Shown here one piece after another: positions 5,169-36,436 of a DNA stretch of 64,000 nucleotides. The position numbers and the translations under genes are program-made. The notes beneath the pieces are model-generated. The model saw only the letters and a list, made by a program, of their open reading frames with translations, did no database searches and was not told the DNA's origin. The first letter of the stretch is position 1. The number at the start of each line of letters is the position of its first letter. Source of the stretch: a virus; the IMG/VR virus record IMGVR_UViG_3300035703_004050, positions 8,164 through 72,163 of that record, one strand, 5' to 3'.

Positions 5169-6631
5169 AAAAATGTAAACTAGTAATTAAGGATGAGGTA
5201 AATGTAAAGTTTGAAAATCTTGACCTTGAAATGCGTAAGCTATTAAGCAAGAAGTTCAAATATCAAATACCATATGCTAGGCATTTACCAGCAGTGAGAC
5301 TAGGGCGTTGGGATGGGTGCGTAGCCTTCTTTCAATTAGGAGGCAGCACCTATCTTAATCTTTTGCCTGAAATATTTCCTATACTAGATCAAAAAGGATG
5401 GGAAATTGATTTAGAAGATTTGCGCCAAGAGAAGCCAGACTTCAACTTTGCAACAGTGACCGAAGATTCGTTTAGTCACATAAGTTGGCCTAAAGGACAT
5501 CCACAAGCAGGGCAACCAATTGTTTTACGAGACTACCAAGTTGAAGTAATCAATGGGTTCTTATCTAACCCTGGATGCTTGCAAGAAGTTGCTACAGGCG
5601 CAGGCAAAACTATTATGACTGCTGCACTCAGTAGTCGTGTTGAACCATATGGTCGTAGCATTGTTATTGTTCCAAACAAAAGCTTAGTAACACAAACAGA
5701 AGCGGACTACATCAATTTAGGATTAGATGTGGGAGTGTTTTTTGGTGATAGAAAAGAGTGGAACAAGACACATACTATTTGCACATGGCAAAGTCTCAAT
5801 AGCTTGTTTAAGAAATCACGCGATGGCGATATTGAAGATCTAGCTACATTTGGTATTGAAAAGTTTGTCGATGGCGTAGTTGCAATCATTGTTGACGAAG
5901 TGCATATGGCTAAAGCTGATGCACTTAAGACACTTCTTACTGGCGTAATGTCTAACATACCGCTGCGTTGGGGATTAACTGGAACTGTACCCAAAGAAGA
6001 TTTTGAGTTTATGTCTATCAAGTGCAGTTTGGGAGATGTTGTTAATAGACTTGCTGCTAGCGAACTACAAGATAAAGGAGTACTAGCACAATGTCACGTA
6101 CAAATCCTACAAACGCAAGAGACACAAGACTATAAGAATTATCAAAGCGAAGTTGCATATCTAGTTACTGATTCAAAACGTTTGGATTGGATTGCAGATC
6201 AAATAAAGCTAATGCGTAAAACAGGTAACACACTTATATTGGTAGACCGTATTAATTGCGGACAGGAACTTATTTCAAGGATAGATGATGCAGTATTCGT
6301 ATCTGGTAACACGAAGGCAAGCCAGCGTAAGGAGGAATATGACGAGGTTGCTGAAGCTAGCGACAAAGTTATCGTTGCTACTTATGGGGTTGCTGCTGTT
6401 GGTATTAATATTCCCCGTATTTTTAATCTTGTTCTTGTTGAGCCTGGTAAGTCTTTTGTCCGTGTTATCCAATCAATTGGTCGTGGCATACGTAAAGCAG
6501 AAGATAAAGACTTTGTACAAATTTGGGACATCACAAGCAACTGTAAATTCTCAAAGCGACATCTTACCAAAAGAAAAACCTTCTACAATGAAGCAAATTA
6601 CCCATACACAATACAAAAGGTAAATATTTAA
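5165..6631 (+). CDS. uvsW: SF2 DNA helicase, UvsW-like
   Basis: LRDYQ, ATGAGKT, DEVH, GLTGT, QSIGRGIR motifs. Confidence 0.9.
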   Translation: MKKCKLVIKDEVNVKFENLDLEMRKLLSKKFKYQIPYARHLPAVRLGRWDGCVAFFQLGGSTYLNLLPEIFPILDQKGWEIDLEDLRQEKPDFNFATVTEDSFSHISWPKGHPQAGQPIVLRDYQVEVINGFLSNPGCLQEVATGAGKTIMTAALSSRVEPYGRSIVIVPNKSLVTQTEADYINLGLDVGVFFGDRKEWNKTHTICTWQSLNSLFKKSRDGDIEDLATFGIEKFVDGVVAIIVDEVHMAKADALKTLLTGVMSNIPLRWGLTGTVPKEDFEFMSIKCSLGDVVNRLAASELQDKGVLAQCHVQILQTQETQDYKNYQSEVAYLVTDSKRLDWIADQIKLMRKTGNTLILVDRINCGQELISRIDDAVFVSGNTKASQRKEEYDEVAEASDKVIVATYGVAAVGINIPRIFNLVLVEPGKSFVRVIQSIGRGIRKAEDKDFVQIWDITSNCKFSKRHLTKRKTFYNEANYPYTIQKVNI

Positions 6632-7863: not shown

Positions 7864-9087
7864 TTAAATTTCAGTAATTGAATTAGTTCTATCAGGGAAA
7901 TAATCTTCCATTACACCTTCTCGATATAATTCAAGAGTAATGCAATGCAATCCACCATCCCAAAAATATCTATGACGCCAAGGAACAATTATAGGTTCAA
8001 TTTTGTGTTTCTTAAAGAAAGCAAAAGCAGTTTCATTGTAGTTGTTAACACAAACATTATATTTGTCTAACATCAAAACATTTACATCAAACACACTTTC
8101 TTCACAATACCCTACCCAGTCATTTAACCAAGTTTCTACGAAATTAATAAATTGATCGTTATCTTCTTCACCAGGTACCCACCATTTGCCATTTACTTTT
8201 TTCTTCATTTTTAAGAAATCTGATACTGCATGAAAAGATTGATTTTCCAAATAACATATTTCCCAATTTGGAAATGTTTTTTCATAATTTTTTACTTCTT
8301 CAATGCTAATAATTACTCCTGGTTTAAGAGTATGAAAACAACCATCGTGATGTCCTTCAATTACTAGTCTATTAATTCTTAAATCTTGACAATATTCTTT
8401 GTAAGTTTCGCAGATAAAATTACAAGTTTTATTACTACCGGTAGTATCTAAATATAAGTCTCTTCCAACTAATGTTGAGTTTCCAGCATCGTCGTAAGTA
8501 TTAATCATAAATGATGTAATTTCATCAAGTATATTTTGTTCAATATTTTCAAAATTGTTGTTGTAATAATTTTCGTAAGTTGGCCAACTTGATCCTTTTA
8601 AAATCTCATATTGATTTTTGGTTAACTTAATTACTTTATCAGTGATGTCTGGTTTGCGATTTTTAAAATTCTCAAAATTGATAATGTCTTTACTATTATA
8701 TTGATATAATAATTTTGCAATTTCGCCGTTTGCGTCTAATCCTTGTAGATACAACTTGTTGCCAATAATAAATTGATAATCTCTAGGTTGTAATGGTGAA
8801 CGAGGAATTCCTTGTCTAAAGCTATAGTATTCAGTGCTGTTAACATTAGCAAAATTTAGTATAGATAAGTTTTTATCTACGTGAGGTCTTAGTACAGTGC
8901 ATCCAAAATCTTTTAAAACTTTTTCGTAGTACTCCAAATCTTCTAATGTTTCCTCGGTAATTTTTGTTAATGCCGATCTAATTTTGTCATTTTTAATATC
9001 TTTGAAAAAATTTGGAGAATAACTATTTCCTAACACAACAGTTTTTAGGGGGTCCCACATATTCCAAACATTATATTGGTTGTTCAT
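7864..9087 (-). CDS. amidinotransferase family protein (paralog 2)
   Basis: WDPLKTVVLG, QPRD, GHHDG, DGGLHCITLEL; near-identical C-terminal half to paralog 1. Confidence 0.8.
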   Translation of the reverse strand: MNNQYNVWNMWDPLKTVVLGNSYSPNFFKDIKNDKIRSALTKITEETLEDLEYYEKVLKDFGCTVLRPHVDKNLSILNFANVNSTEYYSFRQGIPRSPLQPRDYQFIIGNKLYLQGLDANGEIAKLLYQYNSKDIINFENFKNRKPDITDKVIKLTKNQYEILKGSSWPTYENYYNNNFENIEQNILDEITSFMINTYDDAGNSTLVGRDLYLDTTGSNKTCNFICETYKEYCQDLRINRLVIEGHHDGCFHTLKPGVIISIEEVKNYEKTFPNWEICYLENQSFHAVSDFLKMKKKVNGKWWVPGEEDNDQFINFVETWLNDWVGYCEESVFDVNVLMLDKYNVCVNNYNETAFAFFKKHKIEPIIVPWRHRYFWDGGLHCITLELYREGVMEDYFPDRTNSITEI

Positions 9088-33372: not shown

Positions 33373-33413
33373 AAACGAATTGACAATAAATTGAAATAAA
33401 GTATAATACGTTT

Positions 33414-33713
33414 ATGGAACAAAACTTTTATTATGATTTCTCAGATTGGAACCAAAAGCGTAGTATGCTTTGGAAGTCAATTCAATTACGCGGTGATGGG
33501 ATAGTTATGATGGAATCATGGAGAGACCACAATACTCTCTACAAATTGATGACTAATGCTGATCAATATGCAATGCACATCCAACGTGAAGAAACCAATT
33601 GTCGTAGACTTAGGAAGCAAACAACACGGCATCGTAAGTTAATCAAAACTTTTGAAGAGACTTTCCAAACATTAGAAACTATGGCTATTATGTATAGGTT
33701 GACCTACGCATAA
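33414..33713 (+). CDS. hypothetical protein
   Basis: TTGACA-N-TATAAT promoter directly upstream, near-leaderless. Confidence 0.6.
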   Translation: MEQNFYYDFSDWNQKRSMLWKSIQLRGDGIVMMESWRDHNTLYKLMTNADQYAMHIQREETNCRRLRKQTTRHRKLIKTFEETFQTLETMAIMYRLTYA

Positions 33714-33723
33714 ATATGTCGAT

Positions 33724-33906
33724 ATGGAAACACATAAGAGAAGTATAGTTAAATCAATCACATGGCGTGTAATTGCAACTTTAATCGCAGCATATTGGGT
33801 AGGGTTTGAAATAGCAATTCTAATGAACATTGTTCAAACAATTGCTTATTACATACATGAAAGACTTTGGGTACACATTAATTGGGGACGCCAAACTAAT
33901 AATTGA
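33724..33906 (+). CDS. DUF2061 family small membrane protein
   Basis: ETHKRSIVKSITWR...YYIHERLW..INWG. Confidence 0.75.
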   Translation: METHKRSIVKSITWRVIATLIAAYWVGFEIAILMNIVQTIAYYIHERLWVHINWGRQTNN

Positions 33907-33931
33907 CCTAAAGATGCTTATCGCGTATAAG
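33903..33931 (+). promoter_or_regulatory. tmRNA promoter
   Basis: TTGACC-17-TATAAG. Confidence 0.6.
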
Positions 33932-33937
33932 TATATT

Positions 33938-34001
33938 TGTAAGCGTTGATAGTGCTTTAAAAACATTTGGGACCGGGGGGCAGTACCCCGCGCCTCCACC
34001 A
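33938..34001 (+). ncRNA. ssrA: permuted tmRNA, acceptor piece (5' end approximate)
   Basis: GAC-CGGGG-GGCAGTA-CCCCG-CGCCTCC-A-CCA: T arm with the alphaproteobacterial GGCAGUA loop, acceptor 3' strand, encoded CCA. Confidence 0.92.
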
Positions 34002-34013
34002 TAAGGAAATGGT

Positions 34014-34370
34014 ATGCGTATAAGTGAAATGACATTAGATGTACCAAACATTTTGTATCATGCCACTTATCGTCCATTGCTTAGTTCAATTAAAAAGAAC
34101 GGACTAGGTGGGACAGGTAGTGAAGTTAAACGATGGGATGATAGTATCCATGGAATCGTTTATCTTGCATTAGATCCAGATGTCGCTGAAAGTTATGCAG
34201 AAACAAGTGAAAATGTTCCTGATGAATGGCTAGATGAAATCGTAGTGTTAAAAATTGATACTACACAATTAGATAAATCTAAGTTTCGTTTAGATAAAAA
34301 CGTTCAAGATAACACAGGTGACACATTGGAATATAATGGAGTAATACCTATCTCAGCAATTTCCTTATGA
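34014..34370 (+). CDS. Tpt1/KptA C-domain-like (ADP-ribosyltransferase fold) protein inside the tmRNA intervening segment
   Basis: LYHAT..LLSSIKKNGL...VYLALD..VA..YA...IVVLKID...EY.G.IP..AI; AAGGA SD. Confidence 0.7.
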   Translation: MRISEMTLDVPNILYHATYRPLLSSIKKNGLGGTGSEVKRWDDSIHGIVYLALDPDVAESYAETSENVPDEWLDEIVVLKIDTTQLDKSKFRLDKNVQDNTGDTLEYNGVIPISAISL

Positions 34371-34371
34371 T

Positions 34372-34576
34372 GGGGGCGAACTAGGCTCGACCTGTGTATA
34401 ATAAGGGCAAGGGAGTTTACAGTGAGGCGACTGACTTTTACAGCGCAATATAATAAATGCAAACGATAACTTCGTTCGTAACGAGCAAATTGCTCAGTCT
34501 ATCGTAGTTCGCGACCGCGACCTCGTAGCAGCATAAGCTCAACGGGCCGTTGGGAGCCTTGGAACAGAATCCCAAC
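34372..34576 (+). ncRNA. ssrA: permuted tmRNA, coding piece; tag (A)ANDNFVRNEQIAQSIVVRDRDLVAA* at 34459-34536 (3' end approximate)
   Basis: GGGGGCG pairs with CGCCTCC including G3.U70; GAACTAGGCTCGAC D-loop analog; ATAAAT-GCA resume context; P2 complementarity TTTACA/TGTAAG and AGGGCA/TGCTTT to the acceptor piece. Confidence 0.92.
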
Positions 34577-34607
34577 ATTTGACACAGACACACAGAAAGG
34601 AAAAACT

Positions 34608-34832
34608 ATGTCATTAAATCCATATGAGATTCGTCTCGAACTTCTAAAACTAGCACAAACAACTCTAAATGAAAAGGCCTACAATTCTCGTCAAGCATTG
34701 ATGGATCAATATCAGTACGAACGTGAAAATAGTCCAAATACTGCTTTTCCAAAGCTTCCAACAATGCCTACTTCTGAGGAAATCATTGCTGAAGCCAAAA
34801 AACTTAATGACTTTGTAAGCAATAGTCAGTAA
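34608..34832 (+). CDS. conserved phage hypothetical protein
   Basis: NPYEIRLELLKLA...PTSEEIIAEAKKLNDFV; strong SD. Confidence 0.7.
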   Translation: MSLNPYEIRLELLKLAQTTLNEKAYNSRQALMDQYQYERENSPNTAFPKLPTMPTSEEIIAEAKKLNDFVSNSQ

Positions 34833-34947: not shown

Positions 34948-35433
34948 TTGAAGAACTATATTAAGTCTGCAATTGCAGCACTAGCACTTGTTGGCATGAC
35001 CACTACGAGCATGGCAACGGATTCAAATTCAGACAGCGCAGGGTTTAAGGTTGGTACACTTACATGCCACTTTGACACTAGCGTTGGTTGGGTAATTGGT
35101 TCCGTTAAGGAAGCTGATTGTCTTTACAAGGGACTAAACGGCGAAGAGCAGCTTTATACTGCTGAACTTGGTCGCCTTGGTGTGGACATTGGTGTAACTG
35201 GCGCACAGACAGTTGTTTGGGCAGTTATTGCTCCAGGTAAGGCACAACCAGAAAGCCTTGAAGGTACTTATGTTGGTGCTAGCGCAGAAGCAACTGCTAT
35301 TGTTGGGCTAACTGCTAATGCACTGCTTGGTGGTTTTAAGAAGAGCATTGCACTACAACCAGTAAGCATTGGTTCACAAACTGGACTAAACGTTGCACTT
35401 GGTGTTGGTTCACTACGACTAACAGCACAATAA
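34948..35433 (+). CDS. DUF992 family exported protein
   Basis: Signal peptide; GTLTC..GWVIGS..GVDIG..WAV.AP..Y.GASAEAT..ANALLGG..SIALQP..GLNVA.G. Confidence 0.8.
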   Translation: MKNYIKSAIAALALVGMTTTSMATDSNSDSAGFKVGTLTCHFDTSVGWVIGSVKEADCLYKGLNGEEQLYTAELGRLGVDIGVTGAQTVVWAVIAPGKAQPESLEGTYVGASAEATAIVGLTANALLGGFKKSIALQPVSIGSQTGLNVALGVGSLRLTAQ

Positions 35434-35520: not shown

Positions 35521-35748
35521 ATGCTAGACAAAAATCAAATGGAACGTTGGCAAAAAGTTAATGCATTTCTTGAACAAGCACTTGATCAAGTTCAAAATGA
35601 CAAAACTAAAAGCCGCAAAATCAAAAACATTCGTTCAAAGCTAGCATGGGCTTTGGACCAATACGAAAGTGGTCTTTCAGGTAAAACTGAATTACTACAA
35701 AAGCTAACACCTGAAGTAGCAGAAAAGTTTCAAGAAATTTTAGGATGA
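35521..35748 (+). CDS. hypothetical protein
   Basis: AGGAG SD; ATGA overlap with tilS. Confidence 0.65.
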   Translation: MLDKNQMERWQKVNAFLEQALDQVQNDKTKSRKIKNIRSKLAWALDQYESGLSGKTELLQKLTPEVAEKFQEILG

Positions 35749-36350
35749 TTAAACTCCTTACATCATTGCCAAAAACACTATACGTCGCTTGTAGCGGCGG
35801 TGTAGATTCTATGGCTGCGTTGGACTTTTTGTCACGCAAACATGATGTAACCGCTGCATACTTTGATCATTATACAGCACATGGCATGGAAGCAAAACAC
35901 TGGTTGTGGCGTTATTGCCAAAACAAAAACATTCCTTTTGTTCACAGTGAATTATCTAGATCAAAATTGTCAGGTGAAAGTATTGAAGAGTTTTGGCGTA
36001 ATCAACGTTATGATTGGTTTGATACACTTCCAGGCACTGTCGTTACTGCACATCACTTGGATGATGCTGTTGAAACTTGGGTATGGGCTAGTATGCACGG
36101 TCAACCAAAGTTGCCAGAAATTTATCGTAACAATGTAATCCGTCCATTCTTAGCAACACCAAAACAAGAATTAATGGATTGGTGCATTAAGAATAACGTA
36201 CCATGGTTTGATGATACATCAAACACGGATACTAAATATATGCGTAACTATGTTCGACATGTTGCGATGCCTGTTGTCCAAAAGATTAATCCAGGTATCC
36301 AAAAGACTATCAAAAAGAAATTGCTTTCTAAATTAGATAGTGTATATTAA
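35745..36350 (+). CDS. tilS: tRNA(Ile)-lysidine synthetase, catalytic domain only
   Basis: ACSGGVDS PP-loop, TAHHLDDAVET, IRPFL, DTSN..KYMRN; adjacent CAT-anticodon tRNA. Confidence 0.9.
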   Translation: MIKLLTSLPKTLYVACSGGVDSMAALDFLSRKHDVTAAYFDHYTAHGMEAKHWLWRYCQNKNIPFVHSELSRSKLSGESIEEFWRNQRYDWFDTLPGTVVTAHHLDDAVETWVWASMHGQPKLPEIYRNNVIRPFLATPKQELMDWCIKNNVPWFDDTSNTDTKYMRNYVRHVAMPVVQKINPGIQKTIKKKLLSKLDSVY

Positions 36351-36359
36351 GTGGACAAT

Positions 36360-36436
36360 GCGCTGGTAGCTCAATTGGTCAGAGCAGCGGACTCATAATC
36401 CGTTGGTTGGGGGTTCGAGTCCCTCCCGGCGCACCA
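36360..36436 (+). tRNA. tRNA with CAT anticodon, probably tRNA-Ile2
   Basis: Cloverleaf GCGCTGG/CCGGCGC, anticodon loop CTCATAA, GGTTCGAGT T arm, encoded CCA; 9 nt after tilS. Confidence 0.9.

Follow-up and report, generated by a model that had tools for sequence, protein, structure and literature searches.

What is a protein-coding gene doing inside the gene of a stable RNA? This question is raised by the window analysed here, a stretch of 64,000 nucleotides (nt) of viral DNA (IMG/VR record IMGVR_UViG_3300035703_004050, positions 8,164 to 72,163), in which an open reading frame (ORF) of 118 codons lies between the two halves of a circularly permuted transfer-messenger RNA (tmRNA) gene. Few stable RNAs have been studied as thoroughly as tmRNA, the permuted form of which has a spacer that is regarded as disposable. 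A first-pass annotation, made from the letters alone, had proposed a permuted two-piece tmRNA whose spacer encodes a protein with the layout of the NAD (nicotinamide adenine dinucleotide)-binding domain of the RNA-repair enzyme Tpt1/KptA, an ADP-ribosyltransferase (ART) fold, and all of the coordinates that it gave hold in the sequence. In this report, we show that the spacer ORF is a real, selected gene, and we consider it likely that the locus as a whole is a working two-piece tmRNA gene whose spacer serves as a slot for that gene.

A permuted tmRNA gene and the gene in its spacer

We first ask whether the two pieces belong to one tmRNA gene. The permuted-tmRNA model of Rfam (RF04321, tmRNA_permuted) aligned to 33939-34536 with 101.6 bits against a cut-off of 47 (E 1.2e-18), and the alphaproteobacterial model (RF01849, alpha_tmRNA), which the first-pass annotation had named as a check, aligned to 33905-34579 with 73 bits against a cut-off of 50. 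Both halves fall within one alignment, covering model positions 1-213 of RF04321 and 1-355 of RF01849, and the whole of 34002-34371 stands in both alignments as a single insertion between ...CGCCUCCACCA and GGGGGCGAACUAGGCUCGAC, which bears out the claim of a permuted two-piece tmRNA. The parts of the locus, all on the + strand, are as follows.

33903..33931, +: weak promoter-like TTGACC-17 nt-TATAAG directly upstream of the acceptor piece, read in the sequence
33939..34001, +: acceptor piece (RF04321 model positions 1-63; the stem scan agrees)
33974-33990, +: T arm with loop GGCAGTA, read in the sequence
33991-33997, +: acceptor 3' strand CGCCTCC, followed by ACCA at 33998-34001, read in the sequence
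34002..34371, +: spacer (intervening segment) of 370 nt, predicted to be removed on maturation by analogy with two-piece tmRNAs
34002..34010, +: 5' arm of the closing helix, TAAGGAAAT, containing AAGGA at 34003-34007
34014..34370, +: cargo gene for the 118-residue ART-fold protein (ATG 34014, TGA 34368-34370)
34359..34367, +: 3' arm of the closing helix, ATTTCCTTA, which encodes the final residues I-S-L
34368..34371, +: leader TGAT preceding the mature 5' end; its TGA is the cargo stop codon
34372..34579, +: coding piece (RF04321 reaches 34536, RF01849 reaches 34579)
34372-34378, +: acceptor 5' strand GGGGGCG, with G34374 opposite T33995 as the G3.U pair
GCA 34459 to TAA 34534-34536, +: tag frame of 25 codons, ANDNFVRNEQIAQSIVVRDRDLVAA (ANDNF...LVAA)
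34549-34576, +: terminal hairpin, which appears in the fold

An ART gene of the same family was found in the spacer of a tmRNA at two more loci, L003 (on a 249.6-kb viral contig) and L310 (on a 51-kb metagenome contig), which Rfam confirmed as permuted tmRNAs at 78.8 and 122.7 bits, respectively. The 7-bp acceptor stems of all three genes pair (GGGGGCG/CGCCTCC in the window, GGGCCTG/CAGGTCC in L003 and GGGCCCG/CGGGTCC in L310) and keep the G3.U pair, with two-sided changes that preserve pairing at three pairs between the window and L003 and at two between the window and L310 (range 1-3 among the three genes). All three also carry intact tags beginning AND (ANDNF...LVAA, ANDSQFLQAVNA and ANDAFYGEMALAA), which end in AA in the window and L310 and in NA in L003; the window tag of 25 residues exceeds the consensus length of the model, starting at a GCA resume codon and ending on alanine before the stop. 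The precursor folds with z = -6.95 into the shape expected for a tmRNA. By analogy with known tmRNAs, alanine charging, SmpB binding and two-piece processing would be expected of the product.

One check that the first-pass annotation had named went the other way, as ARAGORN did not call this tmRNA gene when run on the window. The same program called a permuted tmRNA in two of ten related loci (L080 and L142) and missed five that Rfam confirmed (L003, L310, L326, L153 and L263); its silence therefore carries little weight. Another relative, L126 (1386-9952), holds 25 tRNA genes by ARAGORN within a 10-kb locus together with a permuted tmRNA at about 5700-6000 that the program missed. Natural relatives with short spacers (L168, L126 and a contig of sequencing run X2) serve as a control for the effect of the spacer.

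The ORF fills the spacer almost exactly, as had been claimed: it occupies 34014-34370 of 34002-34371, and T34371 is the sole base between its stop codon and G1 of the coding piece at 34372. A word-indexed search returned 82 homologues at E <= 0.01, mostly of 115-135 residues and 50-96% identical, the closest being P0002 (96%) and P0004 (81%), and an exhaustive phmmer search returned 627 representative clusters at E <= 0.001 and 338 at 1e-10, many of which embed the domain in larger proteins of up to 1,662 residues. Purifying selection on the ORF, a test named beforehand, is evident among the three spacer-borne ART copies of the window, L003 and L310, with pN (the proportion of nonsynonymous differences) at 0.10-0.23 against pS (that of synonymous differences) at 0.54-0.75, and with dN/dS (the ratio of the corresponding substitution rates) at 0.06, 0.14 and 0.12. 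Thus, the spacer ORF is a real, selected gene.

The two ends of this gene coincide with elements that recur where there is no gene. TAAGGAAAT is the perfect reverse complement of ATTTCCTTA, giving a closing helix of 9 bp that is paired in both the minimum free energy and the centroid folds; the spacer folded alone also pairs its two ends (z = -4.68), and ACCA and the TGAT leader, which can pair at three of four positions, extend the acceptor stem in the fold. To survey this helix, viral contigs were searched with a pattern of only the T-loop, the stem and ...TCCACCA, the spacer being left free, and the counts that follow refer to the matches listed. At least 120 loci were obtained, a matching 5' strand being present in 106 of the 120 listed, while seven of the 14 without it had 56 or fewer bases beyond the CCA; they comprised at least 102 distinct spacers of 4-342 nt. 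The helix statistics were taken on the 93 spacers of at least 28 nt, the partners being numbered backwards from the fifth base before the end. At positions 2-10, 88-98% of these spacers form a pair, with four to six pair types per position, and mean pairing over 12 positions is 0.86, compared with 0.34-0.56 when the partner is slid by one to three bases. The last four bases are TGAT in 71 of the 93 spacers, coding or not. Because they covary or are conserved across the 93 spacers, the helix and leader are to be counted as parts of the tmRNA precursor, and the cargo gene would appear, from its sequence, to borrow the 5' arm of the helix as its Shine-Dalgarno (SD) element and the TGA of the leader as its stop codon. 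The earlier claim of an SD right after the CCA thus stands as to the motif, AAGGA being present, and requires amendment as to its nature, the motif being part of an arm of a conserved 9-bp helix.

Cargo variation among related tmRNA spacers

Is the window exceptional, or do related tmRNA genes also carry genes in this place? A second search with CCACCATAAGGAAAT, which is biased to the SD-like arm, added, among the matches listed, at least about 20 distinct tmRNA genes whose spacers measure 25-492 nt. Within the matches listed for the first pattern, an ORF fills at least 79% of the spacer in 14 of the 25 spacers of 120 nt or more, and each of these 14 fillings was equalled by at most 2.5% of 200 shuffles. 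Among 14 cargo-bearing loci tested, Rfam confirmed a permuted tmRNA in 13 and did not report one in L248. The survey of related phage tmRNAs for variable spacer cargo that the first-pass annotation had called for thus found that cargo does differ: besides the ART gene, the matches listed for the second search hold a 144-residue HNH-like ORF, ORFs of 64, 65, 55 and 25 residues and a 12-residue remnant. Pfam recognized nothing in nine of ten other cargo ORFs and, in the tenth, HNH below the cut-off; three other cargo pairs gave pN/pS of 0.33-0.41.

Two comparisons are informative regarding exchange. The ART spacer is 67-81% identical among the window, L003 and L310, whereas the tmRNA halves are 46-67% identical and the tags differ. 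Between L003 and L168, conversely, the acceptor pieces agree at 97% and the coding pieces at 73%, yet the spacers are 373 and 143 nt long, respectively. In addition, in run X2, a freshwater DNA run of another study, one contig bridges 33938-34422 with 21 differences and a second has 67 other letters where the spacer stands. Because the same cargo occurs in three backbones and near-identical backbones hold other cargo, the spacer looks like an exchangeable expression slot.

Two loci show further states of the spacer. In L174, a spacer of 52 nt holds a 12-residue ORF, MSESIPLFKVSL, that matches both ends of the 64-residue cargo of L122 (208-nt spacer); the sequence suggests that an internal deletion removed a cargo gene here and left the helix arms in place. 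In L153 (5808-6239, - strand), and also in L177, a spacer of 492 nt contains the 144-residue ORF, the start of which resembles HNH (Pfam E 0.0033, short of the cut-off) and which, to judge from its sequence, may be a homing-type endonuclease lodged in the slot.

The ART gene itself is seldom associated with tmRNA. We located 149 loci of the ART family (68 viral, 80 metagenomic and 1 genomic; the collections were not de-duplicated), of which 146 have no surrounding tmRNA, L003 and L310 being the only ones within a tmRNA, and Rfam agreed on tmRNA status at the 40 viral loci scanned. Since cargo varies among phages and most copies of the ART gene have no tmRNA around them, it is unlikely that the enzyme is functionally tied to tmRNA, and the idea of a specific link was dropped. 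At one locus (L326, 2484-3345), an ART gene is followed, some 100 nt downstream, by a permuted tmRNA that Rfam scores at 92.1 bits and whose 402-nt spacer holds a different, 125-residue ORF, and the end of that ART gene, ...TTAATTTCTTGA, resembles a truncated 3' helix arm. The same repeat was observed on both flanks of stand-alone ART genes at L024, L028, L352, L358, L365, L377 and L383, reading AAAGCACCTTTATCAAATTGAT...ATATTTATTA before the ATG and AAAGCACCTTTATCAAATT past the stop, which has the look of a regulatory cassette.

The ART-fold cargo protein

What does the cargo encode? An AlphaFold2 model built from 46 sequences has a pLDDT (predicted local distance difference test) of 81.3 and a pTM (predicted template modelling score) of 0.77. 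Foldseek against the PDB gave 14 matches at E <= 0.001, and the top 12 listed rows were all Tpt1/KptA (E 5.8e-5 to 7.1e-4; template modelling score on the query 0.54-0.59), followed by ART toxins, DarT and DUF952. VIA-align against 48,161 representative chains placed TkoKptA first (Z 10.4, root-mean-square deviation 2.6 A over 90 residues, 27% identity), aligning model residues 5-118 to residues 86-178 of that chain only; two further Tpt1 enzymes came next (Z 7.9 and 7.2), 24 chains reached Z >= 5, and nearly all of the 50 listed rows were NAD-using ART-fold enzymes, ART toxins or relatives. A family profile matched Tpt1 chains with E 0.001-0.008 over residues 9-41, aligning LYHAT to LYHGT. 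Sequence databases were less revealing: nothing beyond Tpt1 hints below threshold came from PHROGs and Pfam for the 118-residue protein, the Pfam families ART-PolyVal, Arr-ms and DUF952 did not match it, and the ESM Atlas returned unnamed viral clusters plus PARP and Arr leads only. The claimed resemblance to the ART fold, with its split beta-sheet that binds NAD, and to the NAD lobe of Tpt1 is thus upheld.

Residue conservation points in the same direction. In the family alignment of 46 sequences, H16, G30, Y61, E63, D94 and Y107 are conserved in all, Y50 in 45, Thr18 in 44 and E106 in 43, and no Arg is invariant. The candidate catalytic residues H16, Y50 and E106 fall on strands predicted at 13-19, 48-52 and 104-108 (strands 1, 2 and 5), respectively. 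An H-Y-E triad in this order on strands 1, 2 and 5 is the classical ART pattern, in which Arg may stand for His and Ser-Thr-Ser for Tyr. The spacing of 14 residues from His16 to Gly30 equals that of His99-Gly113 in RslTpt1. In Tpt1, as far as the consulted part of PMC8464070 describes it, NAD+ is bound by the C-lobe only, with contacts that include His99, Thr101 and Gly113, while Arg16, His17 and Arg64 of the catalytic tetrad lie in the N-terminal RNA lobe (residues 5-78 in RslTpt1). The cargo protein covers the C-lobe only and has no N-terminal RNA lobe; it keeps His16, Thr18 and Gly30 at the places of the NAD contacts and therefore probably binds NAD+, as far as the model allows. Because it has neither the RNA lobe nor an invariant Arg, we regard it as an ART-fold protein and not as a Tpt1: according to the model, it is a minimal ART-fold domain related to the NAD lobe of Tpt1. 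The earlier reading thus survives as regards the fold and the NAD lobe, with the amendment that the protein is not a Tpt1.

The fused relatives offer a view of possible function. Pfam found no domain in the majority of the 54 that were scanned; the others carry a zeta-toxin/AAA_33 kinase (3), GNAT (2), DUF4116 (2), DUF5661 (2), or ART-PolyVal, ParB_N or LRR (1 each). They resemble the injected multi-effector "polyvalent proteins" of phages, in the description of which (PMC9503650, as far as consulted) tmRNA goes unmentioned. Since the fused relatives carry zeta-toxin-like kinase, GNAT, ART-PolyVal and ParB_N domains, they are suggestive of host-directed effectors, and the cargo is most likely, on the evidence of the model, an NAD-using accessory effector that would modify a host or RNA target.

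A start of the form MRIxE[LFIM] is common to unrelated cargo ORFs and to many ART homologues (MRISEM, MRIKEL, MRIKEF and MRIKDI). MRIxE-like starts occur in the window at 34014, 1869, 17038 and 21771 and at the cargo starts of L003, L310, L248 and L326, and genes right after long fused ART forms begin with MRANEF or MKAREF; the wider form M[RK]x(1-3)E[FILMV] fits four of the 204 ORFs of the window. These starts resemble what we take to be the N-terminal capsid-targeting sequence of T4 internal proteins.

Expression, competing explanations and context

How might a gene enclosed in this way be expressed? By analogy with the two-piece tmRNA of the Caulobacter type, the acceptor piece, the spacer and the coding piece would form one precursor. 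While the ORF is being transcribed, AAGGA would be single-stranded, and ribosomes could start at ATG 34014. Once the 3' arm has been made, about 20 stacked pairs (the 9-bp helix, ACCA/UGAU and the 7-bp acceptor stem), a structure supported by folding and covariation, would bury the SD together with the stop and the three sense codons before it, with a presumed effect on translation. RNase P would then cut before G34372, and trimming of the 3' end to the CCA at 34001 would leave two tmRNA pieces and a spacer RNA. In this manner the precursor of a stable RNA probably doubles as the messenger for the cargo. The proposal of the first-pass annotation that the excised spacer is a self-contained mini-mRNA, with expression coupled to tmRNA processing, is at present a conjecture. 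A more elaborate version, which we put forward tentatively and hold to be rather doubtful, would make the stem-closed spacer of phage two-piece tmRNA genes in general a dedicated slot for exchangeable genes and have cassettes (ART, HNH-like and small membrane peptides) swap by recombination in the helix arms, and translation and tRNA-like folding exclude each other, which would give an early pulse of cargo; late ribosomes would be candidates for tagging by the released tmRNA, which would make expression self-limiting, and the message after RNase P cleavage would end one base past the stop.

Several observations weigh against this account. Folding of the RNA puts the SD into a paired state that would hinder translation. 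The metatranscriptome contigs of runs X17, X18 and X19 give no cover on 34020-34379 and are silent on expression either way, their cover being tmRNA pieces of relatives with other spacers. A promoter-like ATAACA-17 nt-TATAAT inside the ORF (34309-34337) could drive the coding piece separately, and, with only three promoter-like sites where shuffles lead one to expect 6.6, the promoter scan lends support to neither side. The survey fractions describe a sub-lineage and not all phage tmRNAs, because the search patterns fixed part of the tmRNA sequence. As regards the protein, the Pfam Tpt1 model (PF01885) scores it at 12.9 bits, far below the cut-off of 26 (which the fused relative P0120 passes at 31.2); E106 is substituted in three of 46 sequences; and conservation and strand order, not a residue-level superposition, are the basis on which the catalytic residues are proposed.

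The alternative that survives best, with a real if minority chance of being correct, differs from our preferred explanation solely in the RNA species that is translated: the cargo would be made only from the unprocessed primary transcript, and the excised spacer would be debris, degraded at once, rather than a mini-mRNA. The pairing of both the SD and the stop in the folded spacer is in accordance with it. So is the presence of the helix and the TGAT leader without an ORF in most spacers (among the matches listed), for which reason both would serve processing and not translation; the paired ends could, however, equally shield the excised RNA from exonucleases.

A second alternative concerns the enzyme, which would be a true RNA 2'-phosphotransferase or a 5'-phosphate ADP-ribose capping enzyme, acting perhaps on the released tmRNA pieces, with the RNA-binding part supplied in trans or needless. 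In its favour, the NAD lobe of Tpt1/KptA is the best fold match, RNase P leaves a 5'-phosphate end on G1, and the neighbourhood includes TilS-like and tRNA genes. Moreover, Tpt1 caps 5'-phosphate ends too (PMC12170183, in the part consulted). We nevertheless judge this reading improbable: three of the four Tpt1 catalytic residues belong to the absent N-lobe (PMC8464070, in the part consulted), the ART gene lies outside any tmRNA in 146 of 149 loci, other tmRNA spacers hold unrelated cargo, and the fused relatives carry zeta-toxin-like kinase, GNAT, ART-PolyVal and ParB_N domains.

It is very improbable that the tmRNA pieces are transcribed separately, with the ORF on an upstream transcript and the coding piece under its own promoter. 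The internal site, 35 nt before G1, would be the candidate, but its -10 hexamer comes from the codons E-Y-N and reads TATCAC in L003, and promoter-like sites are fewer than in shuffles. Furthermore, the covariation seen across 93 spacers in the 9-bp helix between the two spacer ends can be understood only if a single RNA carries both arms. A promoter for the whole unit may be sought further upstream: the weak site at 33903-33931 is omitted by the promoter scan on account of its last -10 base, G, L003 has TTGTAA-17 nt-TATAAT at the matching place, and a site with 12/12 matches to the sigma-70 consensus (TTGACA-16 nt-TATAAT, 33380-33407) precedes the 99-residue ORF, at a distance of about 530 nt from the tmRNA. 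The scan, which also covered terminators, found none on the + strand.

That the tmRNA gene is a dead remnant broken by the insertion of a mobile ART gene is also very improbable: the missing ARAGORN call and a spacer far longer than most of the 102 surveyed would fit, but the Rfam score is twice the cut-off, all three ART-bearing genes keep the acceptor pairing, the G3.U pair and AND...alanine tag frames, and ARAGORN also overlooks relatives that Rfam confirms. A group I intron was rejected, as no intron family of Rfam scored over its gathering score in the window and the insertion site, CCA-G1, is the wrong one.

The preferred explanation, a working tmRNA with a gene in its spacer, can now be set beside known systems. 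The locus is like the permuted two-piece tmRNAs of Alphaproteobacteria and of aquatic phages such as the OM43 phage Melnitz (RF01849 and RF04321) in having an acceptor piece ending in CCA, an intervening segment and a coding piece from G1, as well as a G3.U pair, an AND... tag and, by analogy, a precursor cut by tRNA-type processing. In contrast to the permuted tmRNAs described, its segment is 370 nt long and holds a selected gene of 118 codons with the SD in the helix and the stop in the leader. As content of such segments, the consulted parts of the literature report only a repetitive element or a tRNA-Ala gene (PMC11915505, the tmRNA database paper of 2025); they also describe a glutamine riboswitch, situated in the 3' domain (PMC9004378, section 8). 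The literature searched, which covered parts of PMC11915505, PMC4131195 and PMC9004378, among others, yielded no account of a permuted tmRNA with a protein-coding spacer, in agreement with the first-pass annotation, which knew of none. Group I introns with homing-endonuclease genes in the tmRNA T-loop (PMC11915505, in the part consulted) similarly nest a protein gene in a removed part, but here the nested gene occupies the permutation spacer (CCA to G1), a segment that RNase P and 3' trimming, not self-splicing, would take out, and the cargo is mostly not an endonuclease, one spacer (L153) holding an HNH-like ORF.

The protein has its own counterparts. It shares with Tpt1/KptA (PF01885) an ART-type NAD lobe (Z 10.4) and LYHAT, corresponding to LYHGT, whose His and Thr contact the NAD ribose; unlike Tpt1/KptA, it has no N-terminal winged-helix RNA lobe, so that Arg-His-Arg of the tetrad is absent, and no conserved Arg at the fourth tetrad position. 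It also resembles the ART modules of phage polyvalent proteins, its relatives lying within phage proteins of 250-1662 residues, but it stands alone and its gene is inside an RNA gene; the small stand-alone ARTs Arr and DUF952 are among its fold and feature matches. The distinctive point of the window locus is its cargo, a minimal ART-fold enzyme family.

The source record has 72,163 bases and is about 20% complete by CheckV. The window encodes a DnaB-like helicase, NrdA/NrdB, a DNA ligase and a tail-spike-like protein, which mark a large phage; its origin is a large aquatic phage. A blastn search of 33700-34800 against 50,697 phage records gave no match. The neighbours of the tmRNA gene are as follows.

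Upstream: 99-residue ORF
33724-33906, upstream: DUF2061 membrane protein
Downstream: 74-residue ORF
34948-35433, just downstream: DUF992 protein, 161 residues, secreted-looking (Pfam E 1.5e-44)
35745-36350: PP-loop/TilS-like protein, 201 residues (Pfam ATP_bind_3, E 2.5e-33)
36360-36436: tRNA with anticodon CAT, called Met by ARAGORN, starting 10 bases past the TilS-like gene

Because the adjoining TilS-like gene pairs with that tRNA, the arrangement suggests that the CAT tRNA may be a tRNA-Ile2 into which a dedicated enzyme introduces lysidine.

What, then, does a gene in this place mean? The ART cargo belongs to a family with a minimal ART fold, widespread among aquatic phages and without a model in Pfam, and annotation pipelines miss both the tmRNA, on which ARAGORN fails, and the reason why its halves lie apart. 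With a selected gene in the spacer, one precursor would be at once the precursor of a stable RNA and a messenger, with the ribosome-binding site and the stop of the cargo built into the processing helix and the leader. The locus thus presents a testable case of competition between translation and RNA maturation.

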